Shown here one piece after another: positions 45,998 through 64,000 of a stretch of 64,000 nucleotides of DNA. This DNA is from an uncultured Gammaproteobacteria bacterium. Its GTDB lineage: Bacteria > Patescibacteriota > Patescibacteriia > Magasanikbacterales > UBA922. The stretch's first letter is position 1; each line of letters opens with the position of its first letter. Location of the stretch: contig CAZFKS010000003.1 in NCBI GenBank assembly GCA_964519725.1, forward strand, positions 15,821-79,820, in the 5' to 3' direction. Below the pieces are notes generated by a model. That model made no database searches. It saw only the letters and a list, made by a program, of their open reading frames with translations, and was not told the origin of the DNA. The translations under genes and the position numbers were made by a program.

Positions 45998-48085
45998 TTG
46001 ACCGGTCTCGGGTGTCCGGCTACCGTGTTCCGAGTGAAGGAGATCGAACTAGGCAACAGCGCAGCAAGCAGCCCCGTGCCCGAGCCGCCGCAGCCCGAGA
46101 TGAAAGTCGACGTGCTCGGGTGCGTGCGCGCGACTCACGTCCCGAAGGATTCGGCCTTTCTTCCGGTATTTGAAGCCGTCGTGAATGCGATCCATTCAAC
46201 TCAGGATCGATTCGGTACTGACGTTTTGGCTCAAGGACGGATCGAAGTGCGTGTTGTGCGCGTTCCTCAGCCTGATCTCCCTGGCTCGCCGGGTCGCCCT
46301 AGCGTCCTTCCGATCGAGCGCGTGGTTGTCACGGATAACGGCCAGGGATTTACGCCGCGGAACCTCGGTTCGTTCCAGACGGCGTACACGACGGCCAAGC
46401 TTGACCGAGGCGGGAAGGGCGTTGGGCGCTTTTCGTGGCTCGCCGTGTTTCGCGAAGCTCACGTCGAAAGCACGTACCATGAGGAGTCCGGCCCGCGGCG
46501 CCGGTCTTTCACGTTCCGCCCGACCCCCCGCGGAATCGAAGGTCACACCGACCTGCCGGTCGAGCCTGAGGCCGAACTCACAACAGCGGTCGAGCTTCGC
46601 GGCATTCAGCCGAAGTACGCGGACGCACTTCGCCGCGGAACCGACGTCATAGCCGAGAAGATCTTCGAGCATTGTTTCCCCTACTTCGTGGTCGGCGACT
46701 GCCCCGAGGTATTGCTAGTCGACGTCCTTCCTGACGGGGCTGAGCGTGTTCTCGTCAACGACAAAGTGAAGGAACTGCGGATCGGCCCGCCCCAGCCGCT
46801 GAAAGTCGGCTCTCATGTCCTCGAGGCTCGGCACGTCCAGCAACAACATCGTGGCGAACGACAACACACCGCCCACCTGTGCGCGAACAAGCGAGAAGTA
46901 GAAACGTTCAAGTTGTCAGCAGTTACCGAACTAGGCGACGGACCAATCGCGAGTTCGGATGGACAGTCGCTCGTGCATCACGTATTCGTGAGCGGCGGAG
47001 CGCTCGACGAGGCCGTTAACAGCGTTCGAACCCGGTTGGTTCTCGCAGAGGACGATTCGTTGTTCGCGAGCGCCGGCGAACTCGACATGAAGAGCATCAA
47101 GGCTGCCGCTGGTGAGCAGGTCCGGACCGAGCTCGCAGGGTTTCTCGAGGACGAGAAGAAAACGAACTTCGAGAGGATCGAGCGGCACATTCGCACCGTG
47201 CAGCCCGAGTACCGCCATCTCCTCACGCGAAAGCCCGATGAGCTCTCGCGCGTCAGGTGGACCGACAACCCACGGCAGCTCGACGAGAACCTCTACAAGG
47301 TCCAACAAGCTTGGGACACTGAGGCTCGTGCGCGACTCGCTGCCGTCGAGGAGAAGGTACTCGAGGGAACCAATCCGGAGCTCTTCGCCGATGAGCTCGG
47401 CCGCGTATCCGCAGAAGTGAATGAAGCCGGTGAGGCGAGCCTGATCAAGTACGTCGTCCGGCGTCGTGCCATCCTCAAGGTGGTTCGCGCTCTCCTTGGT
47501 CGAAATGCGCTCGAAGCACACATTCATCAGATTCTCTTTCCTCCCAAGAAGACCGCCGACGATGTCGAGTACGGTGATCACAACCTGTGGCTCGTCGACG
47601 ACACCTTCTCGTTCTACGAGCACGTCGCGTCCGACCTTCCGTTCTCGGCGATTTCGGCCGCCCCGGTTGACGGCCTGCGGCGGCCGGACCTCCTCGCGTT
47701 CAAGACCGGTGACTCGCCCTACCAGCACGTGGCCCTGCTCGAACTCAAGCGCCCGGAACGTGGCAACGACAACCCCGCCCAGCAGCTCATGGACTATGCC
47801 GTGCTGCTGCGAGAGGGCGGTGCGAAGAACGTGCATCACATGACCATGCCGGGAATCCCGAAGTCCGTTCGCATCGACGGGGTGGCACTTGTTACTCTGG
47901 GCCCCGAGATGGAGCGTCGTCTACGGACAGGGCCGGGGAACCTACGCAAGGCCGATGGTGAATGGCGCTGGTACGGCTTTGTGCCGGAAGAGAACCTAAG
48001 CATTGAGGTTCTCGATTTCCAGGCATTCGTCGTTCGAGCGGAGCAGCGCAACCGAGCGTTCTTCGCAAAGCTCGGCCTGAGCTAG
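45998..48085 (+). CDS. GHKL (histidine kinase/Hsp90/MORC-like) ATPase fused to a C-terminal PD-(D/E)xK-like nuclease domain; candidate single-gene defense protein
   Basis: VVTDNGQGFTPRNLGSFQ...KLDRGGKGVGRFSWLAVF = Bergerat-fold N/G boxes. C-terminus PDLLAFK...HVALLELKRPE = D...ELK nuclease-like motif. Track start is TTG at 45998; ATG at 46103 is an alternative. Confidence 0.6.
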   Translation: MTGLGCPATVFRVKEIELGNSAASSPVPEPPQPEMKVDVLGCVRATHVPKDSAFLPVFEAVVNAIHSTQDRFGTDVLAQGRIEVRVVRVPQPDLPGSPGRPSVLPIERVVVTDNGQGFTPRNLGSFQTAYTTAKLDRGGKGVGRFSWLAVFREAHVESTYHEESGPRRRSFTFRPTPRGIEGHTDLPVEPEAELTTAVELRGIQPKYADALRRGTDVIAEKIFEHCFPYFVVGDCPEVLLVDVLPDGAERVLVNDKVKELRIGPPQPLKVGSHVLEARHVQQQHRGERQHTAHLCANKREVETFKLSAVTELGDGPIASSDGQSLVHHVFVSGGALDEAVNSVRTRLVLAEDDSLFASAGELDMKSIKAAAGEQVRTELAGFLEDEKKTNFERIERHIRTVQPEYRHLLTRKPDELSRVRWTDNPRQLDENLYKVQQAWDTEARARLAAVEEKVLEGTNPELFADELGRVSAEVNEAGEASLIKYVVRRRAILKVVRALLGRNALEAHIHQILFPPKKTADDVEYGDHNLWLVDDTFSFYEHVASDLPFSAISAAPVDGLRRPDLLAFKTGDSPYQHVALLELKRPERGNDNPAQQLMDYAVLLREGGAKNVHHMTMPGIPKSVRIDGVALVTLGPEMERRLRTGPGNLRKADGEWRWYGFVPEENLSIEVLDFQAFVVRAEQRNRAFFAKLGLS

Positions 48086-48586
48086 AGCTCATGTCGCTGC
48101 GAGGCGCGAGCGGGGAGTCGAGGAATTCCGTGGTGATTTCCTTGAAGTTCGCCTGCTGCCGGAGCGACGTCTTCGGGCTTTCTGGTCAGTACGAAGCGCG
48201 TGACAAACGCACTTCCGGCCTCCACAGGGCCAAAGAAGTGGCCCACCAGTCTAATCAGAAAATGTGGCGCAGTCGCGCGATCAGCCACATCGGGTGGCTC
48301 CACCCGGTTTCATCCCGCCGTGGTGCGCGAAGCCCATCTCGAACTAGCTATGACCATCCTGACTGAGTACGAGTGCGAACACGAGTCGCTCTTCGATGCA
48401 GACGCGCTCCGTAACCCAAGCAGTGGTGCCGGTTAACGTTGGCACCCACGCAGCGTCCCCGTTTCCCAGGAGGCCGTGCGTCCCGCGGATCTGCCGAACT
48501 TTGTCGTAGGCGGTCTGAGCCAGCGGGCCGAGGATGTGTACCGAACACAGTCCAGAATAGCTCGTTCATCTGGGGAGTCCTTTGGT

Positions 48587-49354
48587 TTAGGGCCCGGCCA
48601 GGGTCAAGCGTGCATGCTCGTCGGCCGCCGTTTTCAAGCACGCTTTCTTGGAAATAGCCTTCTGCACCTTCGCGTCCTCGTACCCCTGGTCACGCTGCCT
48701 CAAGAATGCTGTTCGGAGCACCTCCCAAGGGAAGATCCCGTCCACGGCGACTCTCCGTAGCTCCTCGACGGTGATAAGGATGTGAATTCGGCCGCGCAGC
48801 CAATCATGAAACAGATCACCGGCATAGCCCTTCCCGCTACCGAACCCGAATCCCGCGGCAGAGAATGCCACGCCGAAGGTGCAGCCGTGACTACTCATGC
48901 GGCCGCAGTGCTGAGCCCAATCTGCAGGCCCCATCGGAGCTATGTGGTTCTTCGCCTCCATGTAGAGGTTCGGTCCGGCGACGACCGCCATCCCAGCGCC
49001 GAGAATTCGGTCGATACGGTCGGGGAATACCTCGCCCTTACCATCGATGGTCCATCGGTTGCTGAGCCCACCTTTCTGTACGTCCCGCGCCACTCCACCT
49101 CTTTCGAGAAAGTAGCGCGCCACATCCTCCAATGGATCGCCCTTCACCGCTGTTGTCTGGTTGCCAGCCGCGGGGAGGTTTGCCTGCGTCGACGTGATAA
49201 AAGCGCGGTAGAGCTGCCGATAGGCCGCGGGATCCCAGCCGCCGAGAACCGCGTACGTGGCCTCGTACACCGCCCCCATCCCGCCAAGTTCATGAACCCG
49301 AGCGGCAATGGCCATCAGATGGCTAACATCCGGCTCAGGCGTGGGCGCGGTCAT
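48587..49354 (-). CDS. hypothetical protein translationally coupled to the 3' end of the Type ISP gene
   Basis: 255-aa ORF from ATG 49354, overlapping the upstream gene by about 20 nt. Gly-rich GFGFGSGKGYAGD segment. No family recognised. Confidence 0.45.
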   Translation of the reverse strand: MTAPTPEPDVSHLMAIAARVHELGGMGAVYEATYAVLGGWDPAAYRQLYRAFITSTQANLPAAGNQTTAVKGDPLEDVARYFLERGGVARDVQKGGLSNRWTIDGKGEVFPDRIDRILGAGMAVVAGPNLYMEAKNHIAPMGPADWAQHCGRMSSHGCTFGVAFSAAGFGFGSGKGYAGDLFHDWLRGRIHILITVEELRRVAVDGIFPWEVLRTAFLRQRDQGYEDAKVQKAISKKACLKTAADEHARLTLAGP

Positions 49355-52300
49355 CAAGGGCCCCTTCGGCCAAGAAGAACCGGATTCTGATCACCACGTC
49401 GTGCGGGCCATCGACGACGCGCGCGCACTCAGGGCAGGCGCTATTATACCGTCCTGCGAGCGCGAGGCTCTGAACACGGTCGGCGCTCGGCTCCTCCGGC
49501 CCGACGGCGCCGTTGCAGACCCGGTGATGAGGAATGAATCTCGCTCGAAACCATCCAACAAGCAGGAGCGCCAGCATGGCGTCACGAGCGGGCTCAGGAT
49601 TCCAATCTTTGCTGATCATCGCCGCAAGTGGGACTTGCCCGTCCAGCGTCGCAGCACCCACTTCAGCAGAGCGGCGTATGAACGCTGCGGCCTCCGCGGG
49701 CTCGAGGCGGAAGGTGCGCCTCAAGATCTGAATTGACCGGCCAAGAATGTCCCTGGGCGCTTCATCCTCGGCCGCCGCTGGATCCAGTTTGCCGGTCAAA
49801 CCACGAATAATCCGAACGGATTCGACCGCGACGGTGACCGCCTTCTTTAGAAGCCCAACAATATACATCGGATCGGACGACGCATCGTTCGGGTCCGACG
49901 CTATGCCGCTGTCCCTATCGGATGACGCCTCGTACTGATCCATCACCCATTCGAGGGGTGTCCGACCATTGATGACGTACTCATGTGCCTCGGGAGGGAT
50001 ACCGGCGAGCATAAGAGAAGAGTTTACACAGATACAGCTCTTGTCTACCTTCTTGCCCTCCCGCGCATATTGCATTCGGGTCACACGATAGGCACCTGGG
50101 TCGCGAGTCAGCGCAGTCCATTGCTCGCGCAGCGGGTACTCCGCTGCGGTCTCGTACCCCACATGCAGGGCAGAAAGCCTTCGACCGGCCGCAGCGAACG
50201 CGTCGAATGCACGACTCAGCGGAATGCGAGGAGGTTGGACCTTCAACTCGTTGGCGAACCGATCGCGATAATCGGGAGAGTGAAGAACGCCATAGACATA
50301 GAAGAAGATATCTTCCTTGGTGATGTCGTCTCGCGCGTAGCTGACACGGAACCAGTTTAGCGCTGCGTCTGTAATCGCCTCCCGGCGTCCACCAATTTGG
50401 TCGCCCGACGTTGCCTGAAAGAGATCAGTGGGCGACCCCTCGGCGGCGTAGACGAATCTCGGAAAGAACTGCGTGCCATCCGGAGCCACCTTCGAGTCTG
50501 GCAAGGTATCGGTCATTAGCACCGAGAACGCCCGTCGAGTTCCTGCCGCCGGCACGCAGATGGCGAGGTTCGGCGAGTTCGCCCCCGGAAACATCTCGGG
50601 GAGTTCGCCAACCAGTTCATTCATCCCGCGGTCGAAGTAGACCCACTTCTTGCAAAAGGGACGATACAACGCGCGTACGATGCGCTCTTCCGAGAACGGA
50701 TGGTCCCTTCCTGCCTTCAAAGCGTTTTTTAGACCGCGGCTCCATTTGATGCGGCGCTCGTCACGGTCAATGAAGGACTCTATGTCGAGCCATTGGGCTT
50801 TCTTGCGGCCGCTATTCGCCTTCCGGTAAGCAATGACATGCTGGTTGTAGACGGCGCTCATTCGTCGCATGTTGGCGGCCACTGCTGCAGCCGAGAAGCC
50901 ATACGCCCAGGCGTCGCGATTGGTCACGATGCCTGACGCGTACGTGCTGAACACGGTGAGCGGCTCGGTTCTGTCGCGGTCCTTTTCACCAAGCGCCAGG
51001 AGATGGCCGAAGTCGTCGCCTCGCTGTCTGACCCAGTCCCCCGCCGCGTTCGGCGTCACCTCGACCCAAGGCACTCCCTTGACGCTCTGGAACTCGGCCA
51101 CGCGCTGGAGCTTCTCGGGCGCGGTTAGGTAGTCGCCAATGTCATGGTAGAGCAGTCGCCTGGGTTGTGCCGCGGATGGATTACGCACGAGGACCGTAAT
51201 CGCGACTCCCGCCCTGCTTCCAGAACCGAATACCTTTCCGCCCTCCATCCGTGAAACAACGCCCTGGGTGCGCTGATCCCCACGAAGGTCGAAGCAATAG
51301 ATCGAGGTGAACTCGTCCCCAACACACTTCCGGAACCCGTCCATTGTCTTCTTCGACACGATGGCGCCGTTGCTTACGAACGCAATGACCCCTCGTTCCT
51401 TCAGGCGGTCGCTGGCCCATCTGAACGCCCGAATATACGAGTCGTAGAGGTTTCTTACCAAGTCCGCGCTTGAACTCGCCGCATAGGTTTGGCGGATACG
51501 TTCGTCGAGCTGAGGGTATTCGAGGTTCACGTTCCCGTCGTTCTGGCTCTCCTGCCCCACCGACCATGGTGGATTGCCAATTACGACGCGAATATCGGTC
51601 TCGTTCTGCAAAGCAGCCCGCCGATTGTTCTCTGGGAACATTGAGGCGAGGGTAGTCCCTCGCGTCTCGGTCATCTGAAAGGTGTCGGTTAGTACGATCC
51701 CCGGAAATGACTCGTATGGGGCTCCGGACAGCGCGTGGTAGGTGCTCTCGATGTTCACAGCCGCGATGTAGTACGCAAGCAAAACGAGCTCGTTGGCGTG
51801 AAGCTCTTTCAAATACTTGCGGCGGAGGTCCGCGCGGGCAATGAGGCCGCTCTGAAGTAGGCGAACGAGGAAGGTGCCTGTACCCGTAAACGGGTCCAGG
51901 ACGTGCACCCCCTCAGCCGAAAGACCGACGCCGAACTCCGCTGTCAGCACCGCCTGTACGCTGTGAATGATGAAATCCACGATCTCGACGGGGGTGTAGA
52001 CAATGCCAAGGCGTTCCGCCGTCCGCGGGAATGCGGTCCGGAAGAACTTGTCGTAAAGTTCAATGACGATGCGCTGCTTGCCTTCGGCATTATCGATCCC
52101 GCGTGCGCGGATTCGAACGCTCTCATAGAAGCTCTCCAGGGCCACCGTTTCCTTTTCGAGGTTCTCCTCCTGGAGTGCATCCAGCATCTTCTGCATGGCC
52201 ACGGAGACTGGATTCGAGCGAGTGAACTCATGCCCATCGAATAGCGCGTCGAAGACTGGGCGAGTGATAAGATGCTGCGAGAGCATTTCAATCGCGTCAT

Positions 52301-54551
52301 CTCTGCTGACGCTGGGATTCAGACTCGCTTGCAGCTCGGCAAGGAACTCTGCAAAGGCACGGCGCGCGACGCTACCCTTTCCATCCACAAGGGCCGATAT
52401 TCGAGCGACGTGACGTTCCGCGATTTCAGCAACATCCTTTGCCCAAGTCTCCCAGTAGCGCCGGTCTCCGCACTTTTCGACGATGCGCGCGTAAATGGCA
52501 TCGCGCCACTCCCCAATCTGCGGGAATGCGAGGTAGTATTGCTGCCCCTCACCATTCGGCGCGCGGCTCTGGCTCGTACCCTCGGTCTCGCGGCCCGAGA
52601 CGCCGACTACTTGGATCTGCGGTGGTCTGGTCTTGTTCAGTTCCAGCTGATTGATGGTCGCATTAAACCGGTCATCGTGCGCCCGCAGGGCCTGGAGAAC
52701 CTGCCATACGACTTTGTACTTCTGATTGTTTTTGAGGGCTTCATCCGGGCGCATGTCGGCAGGAATCCCGATAGGAAGGATGATGTACCCGTACTGCTTA
52801 CCTTCAGCTCGTCGCATCACCCGGCCAACCGACTGCACGACGTCGACGACCGAGTTTCGGGGGTTTAGAAACATGACGGCGTCGAGCGCAGGCACGTCCA
52901 CGCCTTCTGAGAGGCAGCGGGCATTCGAGAGGACCCGGCAGATCCCATCGCCGCCGGACTCTGCCTTCAGCCAATCAAGTCGTGCATTCCGCGCCAGCGC
53001 ATTGAAGGTACCATCCACATGGTCGACCTCGCACCGCAGCAGGCCTGGCTCTTCGGGATGCTCCTTGATGTAGGACTCGACAACCTGACCAAACAGGCCG
53101 GTGATTCGTTTGCTGTCTTTGATTGACCGGCAAAACGCCACCGCCCGCTTCATCGGAGCTGGGTCGGTCTCAGTCGCAGCTGAATCCTCGGTGAACCGCT
53201 TCGCGAGGCCGTTCCAGCACCCGGTGATCTTGACCGCGTCCTCGAGCCGGAGCTCGGAATCTTCGTCCGCGAGCTGCTTTTGGAACGTGCGGCTCACGTA
53301 TTTCTCGTCGACCGCGAGCACCATCACCTTGTAATCGGTGAGGAGTCCGGAGGCGACCGCTTCGGAAAACCCGAGCCGATGGAACTCCGGACCGTAGAGC
53401 CGTTCGTCGTCCATGGACGCGATCTCAGCGTCGTTCTCCTCGGCCTTCGTCTTGGTGACGTCGCTGAAGATACGCGGCGTGGCGGTCATGTATAGCCGGC
53501 GCTGAGCACGCACGAAGTCGCCGTCATGGACTCGGACGAAGTGCGATTCATCCTCGTCGGCGAGTTTCACGCCGGTCGTGCGGTGAGCCTCATCGCAGAT
53601 AATGAGGTCGAACTCCGGGAGCCCCTTTTTCTGAGCATCGGCGACTGCCTGGATCGACTGGTAGGTCGAGAAAACGACCGTGAGCTTTCCGTTGCCACCG
53701 TGCTTCCCGGCCTTTGCGAGGAGAGCGGCGTTGGTAGTGGCAGGGAACGCCAAGTCATGCGTGTGGAGGTCCTCGCTGTCGGCCGGCCGTCCGACCTGGG
53801 TATCCGAGCACACCGCGAACGCGCGAAGTTTCCGGCTCGCCTCCGAGGTCCACTCGCGGAGGGACTGAGAAAGCAGGGAGATCGATGGAACAAGAAACAG
53901 GACCGTAGCCGACTCTTTCGGAGTGAGTTCCTCGGCGATGCGAAGGGCAGTGAACGTTTTGCCGGTCCCGCAGGCCATGATTAGCTTTCCACGGGCGCTC
54001 GTCCGGAAACCATCACGTACTTTTCCTAGCGCGACCTGTTGATGCGGACGAAGGTCTTTCCGTTTGCGGAGCTGGATGTCCTCGGGCTTCCTGAGACTGA
54101 ACCGGCTCCAATCGATTGGACTTTCCGCCAGGTCCTGAACGCGAAGGCGCGTTACCGGAAGCGTCTGTCCGGTAAGCGCGTCCTCGGCATGCTTACTCCA
54201 CCGGTCAGTGGTGGAAACCAAGAGCCGGGTCGTGAAGGGTGCCTTTCCAGAGGCCGTGAAAAAAGAGTCGATATCGCCCTTCTGAAGATAGTGATCCGGG
54301 TCGAAGAACTTGCACTGGATAGCGCAGAAGCCTTCGGTCTCGCGCTCGCGCGCCACGAGGTCAATGCCCGTGTCCGGGCGGTGGCCACGCTCGGGCCATT
54401 CATTCCACAGCCACACGTCGCTGAACCGAGCCTTGTAAAGGGGGTCGGTCCGGAGATACGCCGCGATCAACCGCTCGAAGCGGTCGCCCTGGTCTCGCTT
54501 GGAGCGGGCTCCGACGCGCAGTTCGTCAAGGATGGCGTGAATCGAGGGCAT
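49335..54551 (-). CDS. Type ISP-like single-polypeptide restriction-modification enzyme: N-terminal Mrr-family PD-(D/E)xK nuclease, SF2 helicase-like ATPase, gamma-class N6-adenine DNA methyltransferase, C-terminal target-recognition region
   Basis: DTGIDLVARERETEGFCAIQCK (D...E.K nuclease); MACGTGKTFTAL Walker A; LIICDEAHRTTG DEAH box; VLDPFTGTGTFLV (MTase motif I); VIGNPPWSVGQ (motif IV NPPW); 1,738 aa. Confidence 0.75.
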   Translation of the reverse strand: MPSIHAILDELRVGARSKRDQGDRFERLIAAYLRTDPLYKARFSDVWLWNEWPERGHRPDTGIDLVARERETEGFCAIQCKFFDPDHYLQKGDIDSFFTASGKAPFTTRLLVSTTDRWSKHAEDALTGQTLPVTRLRVQDLAESPIDWSRFSLRKPEDIQLRKRKDLRPHQQVALGKVRDGFRTSARGKLIMACGTGKTFTALRIAEELTPKESATVLFLVPSISLLSQSLREWTSEASRKLRAFAVCSDTQVGRPADSEDLHTHDLAFPATTNAALLAKAGKHGGNGKLTVVFSTYQSIQAVADAQKKGLPEFDLIICDEAHRTTGVKLADEDESHFVRVHDGDFVRAQRRLYMTATPRIFSDVTKTKAEENDAEIASMDDERLYGPEFHRLGFSEAVASGLLTDYKVMVLAVDEKYVSRTFQKQLADEDSELRLEDAVKITGCWNGLAKRFTEDSAATETDPAPMKRAVAFCRSIKDSKRITGLFGQVVESYIKEHPEEPGLLRCEVDHVDGTFNALARNARLDWLKAESGGDGICRVLSNARCLSEGVDVPALDAVMFLNPRNSVVDVVQSVGRVMRRAEGKQYGYIILPIGIPADMRPDEALKNNQKYKVVWQVLQALRAHDDRFNATINQLELNKTRPPQIQVVGVSGRETEGTSQSRAPNGEGQQYYLAFPQIGEWRDAIYARIVEKCGDRRYWETWAKDVAEIAERHVARISALVDGKGSVARRAFAEFLAELQASLNPSVSRDDAIEMLSQHLITRPVFDALFDGHEFTRSNPVSVAMQKMLDALQEENLEKETVALESFYESVRIRARGIDNAEGKQRIVIELYDKFFRTAFPRTAERLGIVYTPVEIVDFIIHSVQAVLTAEFGVGLSAEGVHVLDPFTGTGTFLVRLLQSGLIARADLRRKYLKELHANELVLLAYYIAAVNIESTYHALSGAPYESFPGIVLTDTFQMTETRGTTLASMFPENNRRAALQNETDIRVVIGNPPWSVGQESQNDGNVNLEYPQLDERIRQTYAASSSADLVRNLYDSYIRAFRWASDRLKERGVIAFVSNGAIVSKKTMDGFRKCVGDEFTSIYCFDLRGDQRTQGVVSRMEGGKVFGSGSRAGVAITVLVRNPSAAQPRRLLYHDIGDYLTAPEKLQRVAEFQSVKGVPWVEVTPNAAGDWVRQRGDDFGHLLALGEKDRDRTEPLTVFSTYASGIVTNRDAWAYGFSAAAVAANMRRMSAVYNQHVIAYRKANSGRKKAQWLDIESFIDRDERRIKWSRGLKNALKAGRDHPFSEERIVRALYRPFCKKWVYFDRGMNELVGELPEMFPGANSPNLAICVPAAGTRRAFSVLMTDTLPDSKVAPDGTQFFPRFVYAAEGSPTDLFQATSGDQIGGRREAITDAALNWFRVSYARDDITKEDIFFYVYGVLHSPDYRDRFANELKVQPPRIPLSRAFDAFAAAGRRLSALHVGYETAAEYPLREQWTALTRDPGAYRVTRMQYAREGKKVDKSCICVNSSLMLAGIPPEAHEYVINGRTPLEWVMDQYEASSDRDSGIASDPNDASSDPMYIVGLLKKAVTVAVESVRIIRGLTGKLDPAAAEDEAPRDILGRSIQILRRTFRLEPAEAAAFIRRSAEVGAATLDGQVPLAAMISKDWNPEPARDAMLALLLVGWFRARFIPHHRVCNGAVGPEEPSADRVQSLALAGRYNSACPECARVVDGPHDVVIRIRFFLAEGALDDRAHA

Positions 54552-55731: not shown

Positions 55732-55868
55732 TCCCCCTCTGGGGGAGGGGTGGCCGTGAAGCGGGCGGCCCTCCGGCATAGGGGGACCGAGGGGGTGACG
55801 GGGCCAGCGGCCGCCCCGCCCCCAAGGGGGGCGGAAGCGCCGCGGCCATAAGAAGATAGGCCCACCCG
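55732..55868 (-). repeat. element B copy 1: about 137-bp GC-rich multi-hairpin element just downstream of the P-gene stop
   Basis: TCCCCCTCTGGGGGAGGG...GCCGCCCCGCCCCCAAGGGGGGCGG...GATAGGCCCACCC; about 88% identical (by eye) to 61125-61263. Confidence 0.6.
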
Positions 55869-55871: not shown

Positions 55872-56228
55872 TTATTCATTCTGCCTGGCCGCAAGCGCGG
55901 CGCGGAGACGGCGGGCGCGCCGGTCAAGCGAAACAAGCGTCTTCGCGAGTTCGGCCGTAGGGAGCCGGTGGTAGTACTCGAACATGACGGCTTCCCAGTC
56001 GAAGACAAGGGCGGCGTCGGGCTCGCCCGGCACCGAGAACGCGACGGACGCGGCGTAGATTTCCATCGCTATCGGCTCGTCCTGGGCGTGCAGCGTGAAC
56101 GCGAGGCCCGTCGACTCGACGAACGCCGCGAGCTGCGTCGGCGATGGGCGCCGGGATGGAAACGCGGACCGTAGCCGGTCGGCTATCCCCCGTGCGGTGG
56201 CGAGCCGGTTCTTTCGGTCGCGGGTCAT
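55872..56228 (-). CDS. small protein, family P member 1 (unknown function)
   Basis: 118 aa; homologous to the genes at 56225-56587 and 61268-62005 (QLAAFVESTGLAF...ALVFDWEAVMFE...LDRRARRLR). Confidence 0.5.
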   Translation of the reverse strand: MTRDRKNRLATARGIADRLRSAFPSRRPSPTQLAAFVESTGLAFTLHAQDEPIAMEIYAASVAFSVPGEPDAALVFDWEAVMFEYYHRLPTAELAKTLVSLDRRARRLRAALAARQNE

Positions 56229-56587
56229 AGGACTGCAAGTCGGGCGGCGAGCGCGGCGCCAACCGTCTGGGCCTCGGCGTCAAGCCGAAGAATCTCTTCG
56301 GCGAGCTCTTCCATGGTCCAGTGGCTGCCGAAGCCGAAGAGCGCTTCGTCGCCAAAGAGGGCGCCTGACACAAGGGACGTACCTGAAAGCGGAATCGTGA
56401 GTGGCGCGACGGCGACGAACGCCCGGAACCCGGTTTCCGGGTCGTGCGTGTCAATGAGCCTGACGGTAAGGTCCGAAAAAGACACGAAAGCGGCGATGTC
56501 GTCGTGCGTCGGCGCGTCCGGGAGCTCGTCTCGAAGGCGCTCGGCGAGTGCAAGAACCTCGGGTGAATAGGTCGTATCAGCGGTCAT
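56225..56587 (-). CDS. small protein, family P member 2 (unknown function)
   Basis: 120 aa; overlaps member 1 by 4 nt; shares the DDIAAFVSF...FRAFVAVAPLTIPL core with the paralogs. Confidence 0.5.
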   Translation of the reverse strand: MTADTTYSPEVLALAERLRDELPDAPTHDDIAAFVSFSDLTVRLIDTHDPETGFRAFVAVAPLTIPLSGTSLVSGALFGDEALFGFGSHWTMEELAEEILRLDAEAQTVGAALAARLAVL

Positions 56588-56993
56588 ACGGAACGGTTAC
56601 GAACAAGAGTGCGAGCCCGCGAGTGGTCGGGGCGGCGCGCGGAACACGTGGTTGCCGGTGGTGGTCGAGGTCGTGTCATAGGAGGCGGGCCGGGGCCGTT
56701 ATCCGCCCCGCGGCTCCCGCGTGGCGACTGGACTCCCTGCCCGATACCGGGAGCCGATTAGCCAGGCGGCCCGTCCACAGGTCAAGGCCCTCGGCCGCTC
56801 TCGGACGGGCGCCTTGCCGCCCGGGGGTAACCTGTGGGCGGACGTCTGGCAGGCTCAACCGGCAGGGCGGGAGGCCGGGAGCTGAGCGGGACCGCTCGTG
56901 TTCGCGTTGTCTCTCGGCTGTTGGCTGTTCGGGTGGGCCTGTCCGGCCGACGTGCGCCGTGGGGCGCCGACGGCAAGGACTCCTTATGGGGGG
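56588..56993 (-). repeat. element A copy 1: about 400-bp conserved non-coding leader directly upstream of the P-gene start codon (candidate structured RNA / regulatory leader)
   Basis: About 95% identical (by eye) to the split copy at 62006-62367 plus 62797-62853. Contains long GC stems, e.g. CGGCTCCCG...CGGGAGCCG and GGCGGCCCGTCC...GGACGGGCGCC. Track ORFs over it are Arg/Pro-rich artefacts. Confidence 0.6.
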
Positions 56994-57172: not shown

Positions 57173-58957
57173 CTACTTCACTTCGCCGAGGAAGTGCGGA
57201 CTCTTGGGCCCCTGGAAGGTCGGGGCCCAGGTCTCATCGATCCCTGCCGGCACAACCTCAATATCGGTGGCGCTGTACACGAGCTGAATGGGCGGGTCAG
57301 TCGTCGAGATCATCTTCTTGAACTCAACGACGAAGTCTCGTAGGTCCTCGGCGCTCAGCTCTTGTTGACGGGGCGCATCCAAGATAAGAACTCGGGGATG
57401 CTGCCCGTTCGTCTTGAGCGAGGCTTCGACGAGTGCGGCGTGATATGCGAGCACGAACCGGGCTCGCGTGCTGCCCGAATGACCAGAACCCTTCTTGAAG
57501 ACTTCTCCGTCCACGACGAATCGAAAATCTTCATCCCACGTGACGTCGAGAGCGGTGTTAGGAGTTCGGAGGACCGCCAGCCACCTTCGCGCTGCACCGG
57601 CCAATGCTGATCGAGCGTCGAGGACCCGGTCTCCCGGGCCGCTCCGCCTCGCTCGTGGACGGAGGGAGTCAACTAACTCGGCTTCGGCCCGCTCGCGGTC
57701 GAGAAGGGCGTTGAGCTGGGCTCGCTCGCGCTCGATGCGCTGCAGCCGATCGAGACGGACCCGAACGTCACCGATCTCTCTACTCAGGGTGTCAAGCATG
57801 GCCACGACCGATTCGCCGGGGCTCCGGGCGAGGCCGTCAGTCTTCTCTTTGACGGTAGTATCGAGGGCCGCCTGCGCTTCAGCGAGCTGCGAACCAAGCA
57901 GCCCGATTTCGGTATTCGCGTCCCCGATCCCCGTGACGAAGTCCTTGAGCTGGTCCCTCAAGTAGAGCACCCGGCGGCCATATGACGCTTCCGGGTTCCG
58001 GAAAAACTGGCAACTGCCACTGCCGCACAGCCTTCGGAACACGTCGGCCGCAATTTCGTTCTGTTCGAGAGCAGACAACTCGGTCTCAATCTCGGCCTGA
58101 GCGGCTTGCACCTGCATCATCCGACGCCTCAGGGCGCCATGTCGTTGGCCTAGCTCGTCGCGAATCCTCGTTGCCTCTCGGATTCGGCCATCGTAGACCG
58201 CACTGTCCGCAGCCAACACCTCGAGTGCGGAGTACATCCGAGTTAGCTCGCGCTCCAGGGTCGCGTGCCGCTCCCGAAGTAGAACCGCGCCATCGGGGCT
58301 GGCATCGGCGCCAGTTTCGCGCTGGAGCGCTTCGAGCCCGAGCCTCTTGAACGATATCTGTTCGCGTGTGCCGCCAAGACGTTCTTCAGCGGTTCGGAAG
58401 GCAGACTTGTCGACGGGCTTGTGCTTCGGTGGCAGGTCGAGGAGCCACCGCACCACTTCCTCGCGCTGGTCTCGCACGAACGTAGCTGTCGGCTCGTACC
58501 CGGTGGTCCAGCCCCCGTCCTGCTCAACCAAGAACATCGGGCCAGCCACGCTCAGGTACGCCGGAACTGGAGAGCCGTCACCACTTGAGGTGAGAGTCCG
58601 CGGCGCCGTACCGATTCTCGGAAGTACCCACGCCGAGAGTTCTCGCTCGGTTGCGATTTCGGTGCGCTCGCCGTCAGGTCCCTGAACGCGCACCTCAACT
58701 CCCTTTGCAACGATCTGCCGTTCGAGCGTGTGCTCGCCTAGGCCATCCGTGAGAACGAGGCGGACTGCTTGGCAGCGCTCGCGCACGTCCTTCGGGAACT
58801 CCACCGGAAGCCCCAGCGCGTACATAATCGCCTTCATTACCGGCGTCTTGCCGGAGCCGTTCGGCCCGAGGACCACCGTCGTGTGGCGCCCGAAGCGGAG
58901 TTTGCCAGAGCCCCAGCCTGCTTCGCCCCGCGGGAGGATTTCGAATTCAGTGAGCAT
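57173..58957 (-). CDS. SMC/ABC-type ATPase with central coiled coil (LmuB/DdmC-like)
   Basis: VVLGPNGSGKTPVMKAI Walker A at N-terminus; long Ala/Arg/Glu/Leu-rich coiled coil; C-terminal RVLILDAP Walker-B-like box (Asp-Ala rather than Asp-Glu). ATG overlaps upstream stop (ATGA). Confidence 0.7.
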   Translation of the reverse strand: MLTEFEILPRGEAGWGSGKLRFGRHTTVVLGPNGSGKTPVMKAIMYALGLPVEFPKDVRERCQAVRLVLTDGLGEHTLERQIVAKGVEVRVQGPDGERTEIATERELSAWVLPRIGTAPRTLTSSGDGSPVPAYLSVAGPMFLVEQDGGWTTGYEPTATFVRDQREEVVRWLLDLPPKHKPVDKSAFRTAEERLGGTREQISFKRLGLEALQRETGADASPDGAVLLRERHATLERELTRMYSALEVLAADSAVYDGRIREATRIRDELGQRHGALRRRMMQVQAAQAEIETELSALEQNEIAADVFRRLCGSGSCQFFRNPEASYGRRVLYLRDQLKDFVTGIGDANTEIGLLGSQLAEAQAALDTTVKEKTDGLARSPGESVVAMLDTLSREIGDVRVRLDRLQRIERERAQLNALLDRERAEAELVDSLRPRARRSGPGDRVLDARSALAGAARRWLAVLRTPNTALDVTWDEDFRFVVDGEVFKKGSGHSGSTRARFVLAYHAALVEASLKTNGQHPRVLILDAPRQQELSAEDLRDFVVEFKKMISTTDPPIQLVYSATDIEVVPAGIDETWAPTFQGPKSPHFLGEVK

Positions 58958-59436
58958 CAGAGTAGCTCCAGACCTCGGAGTCGAACCCGCTCGTGTGCCT
59001 TTGCGAGTGATCGAACAAGCGCACCAACATCGGTAATTTGAACCCGCAGATCCGAAAGAAGTGCCCGGCCGGTGGCGGAGGTGCTGACGCGACGAAGCGA
59101 CCCCTCGACCACATCAACCAAGCCAACAGTCTCAAGAATTGCGAGACCATCGGCGCACCGAGCGCGAAGCGAAACAGACCACTTCAGTCGACTTCTCGTC
59201 CCTCCGTCCGGGTCGAATCGCTCTGCAAGCACCGCGAGTGTCCATGTGGCTAGTTCACTGGTGCGGAGTTCGCCGTGACGCGCGTGTGTCACGACAAGAA
59301 TCGCGAGTGCGATAAGAGGCGTGTGGAAGAGCGTGTCGGCCGACAGGCCAGCTACGCGGTCGAGCCCGTCGGCGTTGACCTGCAACCGGACGTTTGCCGC
59401 CATTGCTGCTTCGATCAATTGTTCGAGGGTCCTCAC
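58957..59436 (-). CDS. small middle subunit of the three-gene operon (LmuC/DdmB-position protein)
   Basis: 159-aa ORF (GTG start at 59436, or ATG 59403) overlapping both neighbours. Confidence 0.45.
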   Translation of the reverse strand: MRTLEQLIEAAMAANVRLQVNADGLDRVAGLSADTLFHTPLIALAILVVTHARHGELRTSELATWTLAVLAERFDPDGGTRSRLKWSVSLRARCADGLAILETVGLVDVVEGSLRRVSTSATGRALLSDLRVQITDVGALVRSLAKAHERVRLRGLELL

Positions 59437-60605
59437 GGCTCCGCCTCGACAGCCAGCGCCAGGATCGCGCCGAAAACGAGTGACTTGGTGAGTGGCTTCG
59501 TGGCGCCAATTGTGGCGTACCTCTGTGCGAGTGCACTCGCCTCATTCACGAGCCAGTCTAACGCCTTTCGGTCGGACACGTAGATCCGGAGCACGTCGCG
59601 GCAGTCCTTCTTTAGCAGGAGCAGGTCAGCAAGGTCGATCGTGGATCGTTCGGCGATAACCCACTCATCCCATCCCGTCTTCAGCTGACACCAGTCGGGA
59701 ATATGTGATTCGTCAATGCCGCTTCGCTGACAAAGCCGGTGAAGGCGCGAAAGAGCTACTACAGTTTGAAGGCCGGTCTCCTTAAGCGCTCGGTATCCCG
59801 TCGCCGAGAGGCTGAGGAGCTTTAGGATGTCCTCGAGGACGAGCGCCTTTTCCGACCGCAAGTCTGCCGGTGTCGACGGAAGGGCCTTCAGCACACGCTG
59901 GGACTTTCCGCGCACGACCGTGACAAGGCTTTCGCCGATGCGGAGTGCCTCGGACATTCGCAGGTCGACCTCAGAGAGCTTTCGAATTCGATTGCCGATC
60001 TCCAGCCGGCAGACGTCCTGATCGTGGAGTTTCCCGACGCACTCCTGCACGTGGAGACGCTGGAGGAAGGAGAGGAAGCTGGCCTCATCAAGACCAGGAA
60101 CCGCGGCCGGAAGGACTGCCACGACGTCCTGAAATATCCGAAGCGACTCACCGGCAAGCTGCGAATGAGAGGTGACGTTCTTCGCCTCCGTCAACAGGGC
60201 GTCGAACTCCGACGCAACCGCGGCGTTCGTGACGAAGACGAATCGGGCGCAACGCCCTCCGAAGCGAGTGGTGTGATCGAACATCTTCGGAAAAATGGCG
60301 GTCGCGTCGGCGGTGTACGGTGCCCTACGTCCTTTGAGCCCGAAGAACTCCTTCCACGACCAGGGACCTTCACTCGGCGAGCGGGTCTTCACCTGGTGGA
60401 ATCGGTACGAGATTATCGTGGCTTCCTCGAATACGTAGTCATCATGCCACTCGCAATAGATGCACACGTACTGATTTTCATCGAGAACGAGAAGCGCATC
60501 GTATGCCGCTTGATGATATTGGAACTCATAACGAGCGCCGGTGACGGCGCCGACCTGCTCGCGCGGCTCGCTCTGAAACAGTTCACGTCCGACCGGAGCG
60601 CTCAC
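59433..60605 (-). CDS. DUF4297-like (Cap4/LmuA-type) PD-(D/E)xK nuclease-domain protein, candidate effector
   Basis: N-terminus GARYEFQYHQAAYDALLVL then CEWHDDYVFEE...FHQVK fits the D...QxK restriction-endonuclease-like core; 390 aa; GTG start. Confidence 0.55.
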   Translation of the reverse strand: MSAPVGRELFQSEPREQVGAVTGARYEFQYHQAAYDALLVLDENQYVCIYCEWHDDYVFEEATIISYRFHQVKTRSPSEGPWSWKEFFGLKGRRAPYTADATAIFPKMFDHTTRFGGRCARFVFVTNAAVASEFDALLTEAKNVTSHSQLAGESLRIFQDVVAVLPAAVPGLDEASFLSFLQRLHVQECVGKLHDQDVCRLEIGNRIRKLSEVDLRMSEALRIGESLVTVVRGKSQRVLKALPSTPADLRSEKALVLEDILKLLSLSATGYRALKETGLQTVVALSRLHRLCQRSGIDESHIPDWCQLKTGWDEWVIAERSTIDLADLLLLKKDCRDVLRIYVSDRKALDWLVNEASALAQRYATIGATKPLTKSLVFGAILALAVEAEP

Positions 60606-61050: not shown

Positions 61051-61124
61051 ACGCCAGGCGCGCGTTGTCGAAAGACAGCAGCCGGCCAAGCGTTCTCGTT
61101 CGCGGGCGATGCCGCGAACGGACA

Positions 61125-61263
61125 TCCCCCTCTGGGGGAGGGATGGCGGCGAAGCCGACGGCACTCCGGCACAGGGGGACGGGAGGGGGTGACGGGGCCA
61201 GCGGCCGCCCCGCCCCCCGAAGGGGGCGGAAGTGGCGCGGCCATAAAAAGATAGGCCCACCCG
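61125..61263 (-). repeat. element B copy 2
   Basis: Same hairpin series immediately downstream of the family P member 3 stop. Confidence 0.6.
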
Positions 61264-61267
61264 GCTG

Positions 61268-62005
61268 TTAGTCTTCGGTTGCTAGCATGATGGTTGCGAC
61301 GATTTCGAGCTGGTCGCCGCGGTGAACGGCTACGACAAGGGACACCGCGCCGACTTCAAACGGGAGGCGCTCGCCAAGGTCAACGCCGCCTGCGGCCTCG
61401 ATGGCTTCGCGGGCGCCGGCGAGCGCGGCGAGGATTTCGAGGCCGCCGCGGTCCTTCTCGTCGCGCGGCTTGCCAGCCCGGAGGTCCGCGAGCGCACCCA
61501 CCGTGATTGCGACCGGCACCGGAAACCCGGCCGTGCGGGCGACCCCTTCGGCATCTATGAGGACGCCGTCCCCGATTGCCTCGGCGCGGGTGTAGCTGAA
61601 CACGTAGGCGCTCCGGTCCGCGAGTCGGTCCGGCGACCGAACCGGGAACTCAAAGAGCCAGGCAAAGCGAATCGCCCGCGCCCGTTGGTCAAGGCAGTCG
61701 AGCGCGTCCGCGACCTCGGCGGGTTCAAGCGTCTCGGGCTCGCCCGGCTCGAACGCGAACGCCTCGCGGTCGAATACGAGCGCGGCCCATTCGTCCCGTA
61801 CGCCCGTCTTGACCGTAAGCGGGAGGGCCGCGGCGTAGATGGCAAAGTCGTGCTCCGCATGAAGACGCGACAGCTCGAACGCCAAGAGCGGCGAGGCGGA
61901 CACGAACGCGGCAAACTGGTAGTGCCGCGGCCGCGCGTCCGGGAACTGCTCGGTATAGGCGGTCCGAATCTCGGTAAGCGTGGGCGGCGTAGTGCGGTAT
62001 AGCAT
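61268..62005 (-). CDS. family P member 3 (245 aa, N-terminal P-family core plus C-terminal extension)
   Basis: N-terminal 115 aa align with members 1 and 2 (QFAAFVSASPLLAFELSRLHAEHDFAIYAAALPLTVK...ALVFDREAFAFEP...LDQRARAIR). Flanked by the same A and B elements. Confidence 0.5.
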   Translation of the reverse strand: MLYRTTPPTLTEIRTAYTEQFPDARPRHYQFAAFVSASPLLAFELSRLHAEHDFAIYAAALPLTVKTGVRDEWAALVFDREAFAFEPGEPETLEPAEVADALDCLDQRARAIRFAWLFEFPVRSPDRLADRSAYVFSYTRAEAIGDGVLIDAEGVARTAGFPVPVAITVGALADLRAGKPRDEKDRGGLEILAALAGAREAIEAAGGVDLGERLPFEVGAVSLVVAVHRGDQLEIVATIMLATED

Positions 62006-62367
62006 ACATGATGGTTAGTAAGAGCGGGCCACGGTACCGGGGGCGGTACGTGGTCACGGGACGGCGCGCGGAACGCCGCGGTTACCGGTGGTGGTCGAGG
62101 TCGTGTCATAGGATGCGGGCCGGGGCCGTTATCCGCCCCGCGGCTCCCGCGTGGCGACTGGACTCCCTGCCCGATACTGGGAGCCGATTAGCCAGGCGGC
62201 CCGTCCACAGGTCAAGGCCCTCGGCCGCTCTGGGACGGGCGCCTTGCCGCCCGGGGGCAACCTGTGGGCGGACGTCTGGCAGGCTCAACCGGCAGGGCGG
62301 GAGGCCCGGGAGCCTAGCGGGGCCGCTCGTATCGCGTTGGCTGTTGGCTGTTCGGGTGGGCCTGTCC
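62006..62367 (-). repeat. element A copy 2, proximal part
   Basis: Aligns from the P3 start codon through ...TTCGGGTGGGCCTGTCC, where the alignment is interrupted by a 429-bp insertion. Confidence 0.6.
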
Positions 62368-62796
62368 TTGGGCGCTCACGAGAATTGACCCGGGGTCTGC
62401 TCGTCTGGAGTGATCCAATCGCAGCGTGGGTTGGGTGGTTCGCTCCCGCGGGGTTGCGCTCGTTCCAGTCGGCTGCGAGCCGCGTCCGGCGCACGATCTG
62501 CGACTTCGAACGCAGCCGACTTCCACGACCGCCCATTGGAAGGCCACAAACCGGTTGCTGGACCGTGGGGCCTATGGCATCTTCTCCCTCGTGACGCCGC
62601 TCCGAGTGGTGTCAGCCTCCGTTGGCCCGTGGCAACCGGGCAACGTCGAGGCCATGAGCCGAAAACGTTGTACATCAAAAGTAGTTGGCGGGCGCGCGCG
62701 GTGCTTCGAGACCTGAGGAGCGCGGCTGGGCGGTCGTGTTCCGTCGGTGGATCAGTTTCGGCGAGCACGATTGGATCAGTTCAGGCGAGCACCGAA
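62368..62796. mobile_element. 429-bp MITE-like non-autonomous insertion flanked by 9-bp direct duplication GGCCTGTCC, imperfect terminal inverted repeats
   Basis: Absent from the otherwise collinear copy 1 of element A. GGCCTGTCC present at 62359-62367 and 62797-62805. Ends TTGGGCGCTCACGAGAATTGACC ... GGATCAGTTCAGGCGAGCACCGAA are imperfect inverted repeats, and GATCCAATCG / CGATTGGATC lie near the two ends. Confidence 0.5.
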
Positions 62797-62853
62797 GGCC
62801 TGTCCGGCCGACGTGCGCCGTGGGGCGCCGACGGCAAGGACTCCTTATGGGGG
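62797..62853 (-). repeat. element A copy 2, distal part (resumes after the insertion)
   Basis: GGCCTGTCCGGCCGACGTGCGCCGTGGGGCGCCGACGGCAAGGACTCCTTATGGGGG identical to 56937-56993. Confidence 0.6.
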
Positions 62854-63046
62854 CGCTGCGTCTGACTGCGGTGGCCGTCTACCTCCGAAATCAAGTCGGG
62901 AACCGCTCGCGCGTCGGTAGCACGCTTGACGTGTTCAGGGGCGGACTCGTACCGTCCTCGTTCCGCGTCCGCTCGCCCAGAAGGAGAGGCACCGAGCGGC
63001 GCAGTGGGCTCCCAAGGACCACCACGGGCAACTTTTGAGAGGCGTC

Positions 63047-64000
63047 GTGAGCTACGCACTTCGAGTCTTCGTGAGTTCAACGTGCTACGAGCTTCGCGAC
63101 TTGCGTGCGCTCATCAGGCAGTGGCTCGAAGACCATGGTCTTAGTCCGCAAATGAGCGATGCAAACGGGTTTCCAACGCATGACGGCTTGCCGCCATACG
63201 CCTCCTGTTTGCGCGTTCTGGAGGAGTGCCCGCTGGTAATCGCCGTCATCGACCGACGGTACGGCACGGTCTTCGACGACTGGGGCCCGTACGAGAAGTA
63301 TCGAGGGCTTGCACCAACGCATGCGGAAATCGTCCATGCTCTAACCCGAGGGAAAAGGACGCTTATTTTCGTACAGGAAGAACTGTGGACCTTTTACGAG
63401 GTGTGGCGCAAGAATGGCGCTATGTTCGAGGGGCCTAGTCTTCCCTCTGGTCTCCAACGAGAAACCTTGTTGATGTTCCACGAGATCAAGCAACGGAAGC
63501 CGGCGCCCTGGATACGCAAATTCGGCACGGCGACGGAGATAACGAAAGCCCTTCAACTTGAGTTTGTGAACGAGCTTTATGCTCACCTCCACGCTCGGGA
63601 GCGAGAGACGACGGATACCGCAACCTTCCTGCTTGAGAAGCTCACCGGCGCCGCTCCAAACGTCCGACAGCAGATCGAGCGCGCCCTCAACCCGGACCTC
63701 ATTCGTGAAAAGGAGGCTCTTGAGCAGCGCTTGGCGGAGATCGAGCGTCAACTCGCCGCATCTGCAGAATCGGCTGAGCAACAGGTCCAGATTCTTGAAG
63801 AGCAGAAGACCGCCGTCGCCAGGCAGTTGGATGGTGTTCGCAGTGAAGTTAGTCGCCTAAGCGTAGTCCTGGCGCATGCTGCCATACGAGATGCAACGTG
63901 GTTGGACTTGGTCCGGCGGACCCTAATGCCGAAGACGCCGGGCCGGGTACCGTTCCACAACTCTGCTGAAATCGCGCTACGCGGATTTCACGTCAACCAA
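63047..64000 (+). CDS. DUF4062-like domain protein (N-terminal VFVSSTCYELRDLR... module) with C-terminal coiled coil, 3' truncated by the window
   Basis: GTG at 63047 preceded by GAGAGG. Open frame to the window end (hence absent from track). VFVSSTxxELRDLRxxI motif is typical of DUF4062 N-terminal domains of defense proteins. Confidence 0.5.
   Translation, partial: MSYALRVFVSSTCYELRDLRALIRQWLEDHGLSPQMSDANGFPTHDGLPPYASCLRVLEECPLVIAVIDRRYGTVFDDWGPYEKYRGLAPTHAEIVHALTRGKRTLIFVQEELWTFYEVWRKNGAMFEGPSLPSGLQRETLLMFHEIKQRKPAPWIRKFGTATEITKALQLEFVNELYAHLHARERETTDTATFLLEKLTGAAPNVRQQIERALNPDLIREKEALEQRLAEIERQLAASAESAEQQVQILEEQKTAVARQLDGVRSEVSRLSVVLAHAAIRDATWLDLVRRTLMPKTPGRVPFHNSAEIALRGFHVNQ

Follow-up and report, generated by a model that had tools for sequence, protein, structure and literature searches.

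The 64,000-nucleotide (nt) window analysed here, one stretch of contig CAZFKS010000003.1 from the genome assembly of an uncultured bacterium (GCA_964519725.1), very likely carries a genuine defence island within a foreign-looking segment of high GC content. Three independent nucleic-acid-targeting systems, namely a Type ISP restriction-modification (R-M) enzyme, a Lamassu operon and a GHKL-ATPase/nuclease protein, all lie within 46.0-60.6 kb, a DUF4062 gene follows at 63 kb, and the cassettes are placed between copies of a backbone module. The novelty lies in the Type ISP enzyme, to which an adaptor-like domain has been fused and whose gene overlaps that of a partner, and in the rare, unclassified module of two or three genes from which these additions appear to stem. 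An earlier reading made from the letters alone (the original prediction) had described positions 45998-64000 as a high-GC region resembling a defence island. This is supported by the present results, since at least three bona fide systems occur within 15 kb with the DUF4062 gene beside them; the region has 62.5 % GC, and Lamassu, Type ISP and DUF4062 were recognised in profile searches (PADLOC, Pfam) of the island proteins. The assignments of Lamassu and Type ISP are secure.

The Type ISP enzyme (1738 amino acids (aa), 49335..54551, minus strand) consists of a Mrr-type nuclease, a superfamily 2 (SF2) helicase-like motor, a coupler, an N6-adenine methyltransferase and a target-recognition domain, which were recognised in this order by Pfam (Mrr_cat_2 5e-50, ResIII 3e-25, ISP_coupler 2e-50, N6_Mtase 3e-6, Type_ISP_C 2e-97). 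The best PADLOC model is REase_MTase_IIG with 2132 bits. Furthermore, residues 17-1583 align with residues 29-1569 of LlaBIII at E = 0, and LlaGI is matched over its full length as well. With LlaGI and LlaBIII (PDB 5ffj, 4xqk) the island enzyme shares the single polypeptide, the domain order and a gamma-class N6-adenine methyltransferase. In contrast to LlaBIII, it possesses about 150 extra residues at the C-terminus (~1590-1738), among them invariant His and Cys.

This tail domain, in the following component 'B' (49338..49784, minus strand), lies beyond the ends of LlaBIII and of the Pfam and PADLOC models, and nothing meaningful was found for it in PADLOC, Pfam, NCBIfam and PHROGs (from here on the four profile collections). 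Four other loci (L094, L095, L096 and L008) encode separate proteins of 118-174 aa that share 35-38 % identity with residues 1608-1731 (E 1e-20 to 4e-25), and in each of them the gene directly downstream specifies a homologue of the 255-aa partner protein described below. Weaker matches exist in L006 (C-terminal half of its 272-aa protein; 29 %, E 2e-11) and in L007 (an unannotated open reading frame (ORF); 25 %, E 2e-10). Four residues, one His and three Cys in the arrangement H-x2-C ... C-x2-C, do not vary between the tail domain and the free homologues, which suggests a zinc-binding fold.

The partner gene (component 'C', 255 aa, 48587..49354, minus strand), already noticed in the original prediction as a coupled partner, starts within the end of the Type ISP gene, with an overlap of 20 nt that includes the stop codon of the latter; a Shine-Dalgarno-like sequence (GAAGGGG) lies ahead of it. 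An exact copy of the encoded protein is present on an independent Logan contig. Across the eight aligned homologues of the family E76, D104 and E133-x-K135 (E133-A-K135 in the island protein) are invariant, a pattern similar to that of PD-(D/E)xK nucleases. The protein has no match in Pfam, NCBIfam, PADLOC, PHROGs or the PDB; as no profile or structure search confirmed the fold, it is referred to here as a putative PD-(D/E)xK-type nuclease.

In other contigs no Type ISP gene adjoins the homologues of the 255-aa protein, which at first spoke against a functional link. Every other locus recovered encodes a free-standing 'B' protein immediately upstream of the 255-aa homologue, and the overlap of the two genes, 20 nt in the window, amounts to 4 nt wherever genes were called (five loci: L006, L008 and L094-L096). 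A third gene, 'A' (405-426 aa), is located ahead of the B-C pair in three loci, and remnants of it are left in L007. A different upstream arrangement consists of a 214-aa protein and a longer, 272-aa form of 'B', a 272-aa protein being that of L006. A remote copy of the pair with a third gene exists on an IMG/VR viral contig (L097), in which two genes appear split; the tail domain finds only a weak counterpart there (E ~1e-6), and it is chiefly the resemblance to the free-standing homologues that supports the relation. None of the components A, B and C is represented in PADLOC, Pfam or NCBIfam, and PHROGs yielded nothing meaningful for 'A' either. One B-C locus adjoins a defence dGTPase.

The A-B-C operon, which extends over 95-2723 in L094, 1322-3776 in L095, 2-2285 in L096, 6302-8666 in L097 and 4484-8753 in L007, encodes a protein of 405-426 aa, a protein of about 120-130 aa with the invariant His/Cys and a protein of about 250-320 aa with D...ExK. 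It occurs in a few metagenomic contigs and in the one IMG/VR viral contig and is a candidate for an unclassified system. The expectation that uncharacterised neighbours in the island would be a source of new systems has thus been borne out by the Type ISP partner, which belongs to a conserved, unclassified module of two or three genes.

The simplest reading of these arrangements is a Rosetta-stone fusion, in which 'B' would serve as an adaptor for 'C' and is fused here to the C-terminus of the Type ISP enzyme, the latter taking the place of 'A'. By the fusion of the 'B' domain the 255-aa partner is tied to the enzyme. It is tentatively proposed, with doubt prevailing, that B and C form a portable accessory effector pair that can be coupled to one sensor or motor partner or another, as a rule to 'A' as part of an unclassified three-gene defence system and in the window to Type ISP. 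A Type ISP monomer such as that of LlaGI or LlaBIII nicks one strand only, and a double-strand break needs two converging enzymes. An accessory subunit is not known for LlaGI or LlaBIII. The island enzyme would methylate its own sites, translocate along foreign DNA and nick it. The tail domain would dock the 255-aa protein, presumably by physical interaction, and in this way provide a second catalytic subunit for the enzyme.

Judged by its gene content, the region 57173-60605 (minus strand) is a complete Lamassu type II (DdmABC-like) operon, in agreement with the nuclease and SMC-ATPase pair of the original prediction. LmuA (390 aa, 59433..60605) contains a Cap4/DUF4297 double-stranded DNA nuclease domain (Cap4_nuclease 2.5e-15) and is matched over its full length by the PADLOC model LmuA (DUF4297) with 211 bits. 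LmuC (159 aa, 58957..59436) is matched by the corresponding PADLOC model at E 1e-15 over 145 of its 159 positions. LmuB (594 aa, 57173..58957) is an SMC-like ATPase with the Walker A motif GPNGSGKT and SMC_N/AAA_23 matches, and the PADLOC LmuB model (398 bits) covers residues 2-592. The genes overlap at 59433-59436 (LmuA/LmuC) and at 58957 (LmuC/LmuB). The order LmuA-LmuC-LmuB, the overlapping genes and the Cap4_nuclease domain are those of Lamassu type II/DdmABC, and nothing substantive differs within the operon; the difference concerns the flanks, which are formed by two diverged lineage-specific units of non-coding DNA and small genes. A sensor composed of the SMC-like LmuB and LmuC would release the Cap4-type nuclease LmuA. 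A 133-aa ORF (60583-60984, minus strand), for which nothing meaningful was found in the four profile collections, overlaps the start of LmuA by 23 nt and could be a fourth Lamassu gene or a spurious GC-rich ORF.

The GHKL-ATPase/nuclease gene (46025..48085, plus strand) encodes a protein of 686 aa with a GHKL ATPase, an S5-like transducer, a coiled coil and a C-terminal PD-(D/E)xK domain; its longest ORF (695 aa) begins at the TTG at 45998 and is used for the residue numbers given here. In an alignment of 30 homologues the GHKL motifs ExxxN (E50/N54), DxGxG (D104xGxG108) and the glycine-rich lid (G129-G134) are invariant, as are E497, P554-D555 and E573xK575 at the C-terminus. In Foldseek the AlphaFold2 model (predicted local distance difference test (pLDDT) 86) resembles, over about 400 residues, the combined ATPase and transducer parts of SMCHD1, Hsp90, GyrB/ParE, MutL/PMS2 and TopoVI-B (E ~1e-11 for SMCHD1, Hsp90, GyrB and TopoVI-B). 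The fusion of a GHKL ATPase with a nuclease, as originally predicted, is upheld by these motifs and structural matches. For the isolated C-terminal domain (model pLDDT 88) the best Foldseek matches are weak and generic, all of them PD-(D/E)xK nucleases, and do not settle a membership in Shedu. Profile searches of the family and of its nuclease domain against the PDB sequences returned nothing significant.

The family comprises at least 549 loci among the GTDB species representatives, spread over many phyla, and 57 on plasmids. Its immediate neighbours include genes of Type I R-M, RmrA, mad2, capH and PDC-S05. A conserved partner gene was considered and rejected: no conserved neighbour was found across 80 loci, the largest neighbour cluster being present at 6 of the 80.

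Already in 2008 paraMORC3 proteins with GHKL, S5 and a restriction-endonuclease (RE)-fold nuclease with E-D-ExK were described as products of stand-alone, sporadic genes (Iyer, Abhiman & Aravind 2008, PMC2292703). VcSduA, classed as a type I-D Shedu protein, protects against phages, and the protection is abolished by the exchanges E27A and K557A (Adams et al. 2025, PMC12137116; VcSduA and type I-D Shedu are also treated in Gu et al., bioRxiv 10.1101/2023.08.10.552793). The island protein has in common with both the GHKL ATPase, the S5/transducer-like middle part and the C-terminal RE fold with E-D-ExK; like paraMORC3 it is encoded by a stand-alone gene and occurs sporadically across phyla. The spacing between the motif-I Glu and the Lys of ExK is 525 residues compared to 530 in VcSduA. 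A plasmid protein of Vibrio fluvialis is a full-length homologue (27.7 % identity, 96 % coverage) with the motif-I Glu at position 27 and the ExK Lys at position 556, close to the published E27 and K557 of VcSduA, and from this it is inferred that VcSduA belongs to the same family. On the V. fluvialis plasmid pIDH5335-1 (L092, 331355-349355) a homologue closes a Type I R-M operon (hsdR, AAA ATPase, hsdM, hsdS), immediately behind a gene with an annotation of its own as 'Shedu immune nuclease family protein', so that the two kinds of nuclease co-occur there as distinct genes. In contrast to Shedu, DUF4263 is not detectable in the family, which shows weak matches to HSDR_N, and neither the NCBIfam Shedu nor the PADLOC SduA models match. 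Because all of these models miss it, the protein appears to be paraMORC3-like and functionally VcSduA-like rather than a proven member of Shedu. By analogy with VcSduA, the ATPase clamp would gate the C-terminal nuclease.

The modules flagged as new candidates in the original prediction are mostly of known kinds. The GHKL nuclease is not new, as it represents a described (PMC2292703) and recently validated (PMC12137116) kind of protein that is missed by current profiles. The DUF4062-like gene was recognised as well (63035..64000, plus strand; Pfam DUF4062 E 7e-13, 49 bits at a cut-off of 24.7); it starts at 63035 or 63047, continues into a coiled-coil region and runs off the end of the window.

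The defence cassettes are found between copies of a backbone module which is specific to the lineage. One unit of it comprises a conserved non-coding block with a hairpin (B block), then small proteins, a DUF6573 domain or both, and on the 3' side a GC-rich block (A block); a gene for a ParB-type helix-turn-helix (HTH) protein follows downstream of the second copy. Read along the minus strand, copy 2 of the B block with a 429-nt insertion, a 245-aa gene, an A block and a palindrome precede LmuA, LmuC and LmuB; then follow a palindrome, copy 1 of the B block, genes of 120 and 118 aa, an A block and a further palindrome, and finally the ParB-type HTH gene, the Type ISP enzyme and the 255-aa gene. 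The repeated elements noticed in the original prediction are these blocks, which flank the Lamassu operon on both sides. Copy 1 of the A block, GC-rich, non-coding and downstream of the small genes, is located at 55732..55868 and is 89 % identical to copy 2 at 61125-61263. The B block, conserved and likewise non-coding, is separated by about 35 nt from the small genes downstream of it (copy 1, 56623..56992; copy 2, 62050-62367 and 62797-62853). Its copies are 93-100 % identical, compared to 34-45 % for the proteins encoded between the blocks. That diverged copies of the unit bracket Lamassu fits a gain of the cassette by recombination between copies; the arrangement would result if a unit carried by an incoming circular DNA underwent one crossover with a resident unit.

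The three small proteins are true paralogues, as had been supposed. Two overlapping near-orphan genes at 55872..56587 (minus strand) encode proteins of 120 aa (56225-56587) and 118 aa (55872-56228), which match the N-terminal half of the 245-aa protein (61268..62005, minus strand) with E 2e-6 and 6e-11, respectively. Three further representatives were found among 1.84 billion proteins, and the four profile collections contain nothing meaningful for this family. The 245-aa fusion's C-terminal domain resembles DUF6573, which stays below the threshold in Pfam (21 bits). By tblastn, annotated DUF6573 proteins were found on 105 plasmids, 95 of them typed as conjugative; on two plasmids that were inspected the DUF6573 genes are part of arrays of small co-directional hypothetical genes, one of them near a VirB1-like transglycosylase.

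A related locus on a contig of a metagenome-assembled genome with 64 % GC (L089), which contains one of the three further representatives of the small-protein family, has the order small gene, DUF6573, small gene, ParB-HTH, two unknown genes and Type III Mod and Res, and the two halves of the 245-aa fusion are separate adjacent genes in it. The same backbone thus precedes a different R-M system, of Type III, in L089. Further genes without family assignment (550 aa and 761 aa at 1611-5593, minus strand, and 203 aa further downstream) are divergent from the array of small genes and ParB-HTH in L089, at the slot which is taken by Lamassu in the window; they may represent another cassette in this slot. 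The B block is 73 % identical to L089 5748-5969 over 225 nt, with adjacent proteins of 36-43 % identity, and indels of 8 and 22 nt between the two argue against a coding function. Its core forms a long hairpin of about 190 nt with a variable tip, which is the same in the window and in L089 (single-stranded DNA (ssDNA) fold, z = -3.5 in the window and -2.0 in L089). Compensatory changes were seen in 3 of 74 pairs, too few to call with only three sequences. No Rfam family corresponds to the B block, two sub-threshold matches in 55.6-57.2 kb at E-value thresholds being due to chance, and a search of metagenome and viral contigs with a 21-nt core of the block gave one chance match and nothing else. 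A non-coding RNA, a leader and an ssDNA promoter-like element are candidates for its nature.

The 429-nt insertion in copy 2 of the B block (62368..62796) resembles a miniature inverted-repeat transposable element (MITE), in accordance with the original prediction. It is flanked by a 9-bp target-site duplication, GGCCTGTCC, at 62359-62367 and 62797-62805. Inverted repeats of 24 nt, 88 % complementary, occupy subterminal positions, at distances of 31 and 5 nt from the ends. The B block of copy 1 is continuous across the insertion point and represents the empty site. No second copy of the insertion was found by self-blastn within the 64-kb window.

The ParB-type gene (54939..55625, minus strand) encodes a 228-aa predicted DNA-binding protein. 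Of the ParB-like nuclease-domain gene that had been postulated here, the ParB HTH domain is present, if marginal (HTH_ParB 22.9 bits at a cut-off of 22.6; PADLOC PDC-S02 E 2e-5; a weak match to Noc), and a nuclease domain was not detected. The ParB/Srx (ParBc) N-terminal domain was found neither in Pfam nor in NCBIfam or PADLOC, and no GxxRxxA motif was seen by eye. The protein is 42.5 % identical to a 212-aa protein which follows the small-gene array in L089. An 18-bp palindrome, TGTTTCCCCGGGGAAACA, occurs five times in the window (39213-39230, 45938-45955, 55692-55709 with one mismatch, 57056-57073 and 61034-61051), compared to 0.03 matches expected. In its 16-18 bp form, (T)GTTTCCCCGGGGAAAC(A), all five copies are intergenic and located at module borders; their flanks are not conserved, and the palindrome is absent from L089. 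Proteins of the ParB/Noc/KorB type share the ParB HTH with the 228-aa protein and act with palindromic parS, Noc-binding site (NBS) or OB sites. Compared with the consensus parS, TGTTTCACGTGAAACA, and the NBS, TATTTCCCGGGAAATA (PMC7383237), TGTTTCCCCGGGGAAACA combines the outer bases of parS (TGTTTC) with the inner bases of NBS (TTTCCC) and is a putative site. Two differences to ParB/Noc/KorB are that a CTPase-type N-terminal domain was not detected in the 228-aa protein and that the half-site of the palindrome is one base longer. An integron attC site was rejected as an explanation of the palindrome, because GTTTCCC does not match the GTTRRRY core. Taken as a whole, the module of small proteins, DUF6573 and HTH, parts of which had been listed among the immune modules, looks more like the backbone of a mobile element.

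The island region belongs to DNA of 62 % GC which reaches from 31,806 to the end of the window. Positions 1-31800 have 43.5 % GC and contain housekeeping genes for histidyl-tRNA synthetase (HisRS), signal peptidase I (LepB) and RibB. No tRNA or tmRNA that could mark an integration site was found in the window by ARAGORN, and Rfam at gathering thresholds identified no families in the whole window. The high-GC segment of at least 32 kb looks foreign and is joined to a genome of about 43 % GC. Upstream of the island it contains large surface or secreted proteins unrelated to defence: a secreted protein of 1962 aa with many cysteine-rich repeats (39239-45127, minus strand), whose gene forms an operon with a lipoprotein gene (45134-45829), and close by a 777-aa protein with a C-type lectin domain (36685-39018, minus strand). 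For the high-GC genes at 32.5-39 kb the four profile collections gave nothing meaningful. The low-GC half carries a giant ORF of 3762 aa (14077-25365, minus strand) and adjoining it a 742-aa protein with T4SS_pilin and Big_5 domains (25369-27597, minus strand); about 190 nt at 25043-25230 recur at 27230-27417 with 72 % identity.

The junction of the two halves either marks the edge of a segment of at least 32 kb that was acquired and differs greatly in composition, or is a chimera that arises reproducibly in assembly. In the latter case the high-GC half including the whole island would have been joined to the low-GC half by chimeric metagenome assembly, and there would be no island in a low-GC host. 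The shift from 43.5 % to 62 % GC within about 50 nt, directly past a terminator hairpin (31750-31805), and a border without tRNA, integrase or direct repeat would be compatible with this, but a separately assembled Logan contig (5755 nt, run SRR11567520) is 100 % identical to window positions 29073-34827 and reaches across the junction, with about 2.7 kb before it and 3 kb after it. On this evidence the junction is probably real, and a chimera is considered quite improbable. Another explanation concerns the backbone: a conjugative or mobilisable element might have integrated here, and the module would be its leading (establishment) region, with a hairpin resembling the single-strand promoter Frpo (PMC11541004), anti-defence or establishment proteins and the defence systems as cargo. 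The plasmid distribution of the DUF6573 homologues and their arrays of small genes point in this direction, as do the length of the B-block hairpin, the better folding of its would-be template strand (z = -3.0 to -3.5 compared to -1.05), a promoter-like motif TTGACC-N17-GCTAAT in the 3' arm (read by eye) and the five parS/NBS-like palindromes accompanying the ParB-type HTH gene. On the other hand, relaxase, type IV secretion system (T4SS), integrase and oriT are missing from the window, the -10-like hexamer is not kept in L089, the B block has no sequence similarity to known Frpo, and the promoter/terminator consensus scan, uninformative in this GC-rich DNA, gave no match at the B block. In addition, full R-M systems and not orphan methylases are found downstream in L089, and the homologues are too few for covariation analysis. 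An establishment region is thus a possibility to which less than even weight is given.

For the B-C genes it has to be considered that they are an autonomous selfish or toxin-like module which landed downstream of Type ISP, the fusion being a read-through that arose by accident and is functionally unconnected with restriction. The unrelated upstream partners at other loci (the 405-426-aa protein, or the 214-aa protein and the longer form of 'B'), the frequent neighbourhood of transposases and the single Type ISP fusion seen would agree with such a module. However, the fused domain has retained all invariant H/C/CxxC residues and an identity of 35-38 % to its closest free forms, the junction is in frame and follows right after the complete target-recognition domain, the gene overlap of B and C is retained as in the other loci, and the usual upstream gene 'A' is absent exactly where Type ISP stands in. 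An independent selfish module is for these reasons regarded as rather unlikely. Several points nevertheless weigh against the reading of a defence island with an accessory B-C pair. The module is very rare: eight homologues of the 255-aa protein exist among 5.8 billion clustered proteins, none of the components A, B and C occurs on 72,556 plasmids, and the Type ISP-B fusion is a single example. The nuclease nature of the 255-aa protein is deduced from its motif as the sole basis, as PDB profile searches and an hhalign comparison of the family with the PD-(D/E)xK profile of the GHKL nuclease were negative. In the GHKL-nuclease family Pfam DUF4263, the signature of Shedu, was found in 0 of 30 members at E <= 1, and the solved Shedu structures are absent among the Foldseek matches of the C-terminal domain. 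Shared reads may underlie both assemblies which bridge the GC junction, and the island border in the window has no integrase, relaxase or tRNA. Domain content, homology, gene order, repeats and the fusion were directly seen; the interaction of the tail domain with the 255-aa protein, the mode of insertion and all biochemical activities are deduced, the functions from homology, gene order and fusion.

As a whole the island is ordinary, as Lamassu, Type ISP and the paraMORC3-type nuclease have each already been described, and the co-occurrence of the three systems mainly confirms that a defence island can be recognised by a reader of the sequence only. The widespread GHKL-nuclease family slips past the DUF4263, Shedu and PADLOC profiles and is therefore under-called by defence annotation pipelines. 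The B block and the parS/NBS-like palindromes at the module borders hint at a regulation or exchange of cassettes. The fusion provides evidence beyond gene order that the rare unclassified pair of a His/Cys protein and the 255-aa protein works with a large translocating enzyme. It also provides a variant of Type ISP, possibly with an accessory subunit, that can be tested directly. If the proposal of a portable pair is true, the B-C pair would define a new rare defence system, A-B-C, and the Type ISP enzyme would gain a second nuclease subunit and, as a matter of speculation, might cut both strands without the collision of two enzymes.

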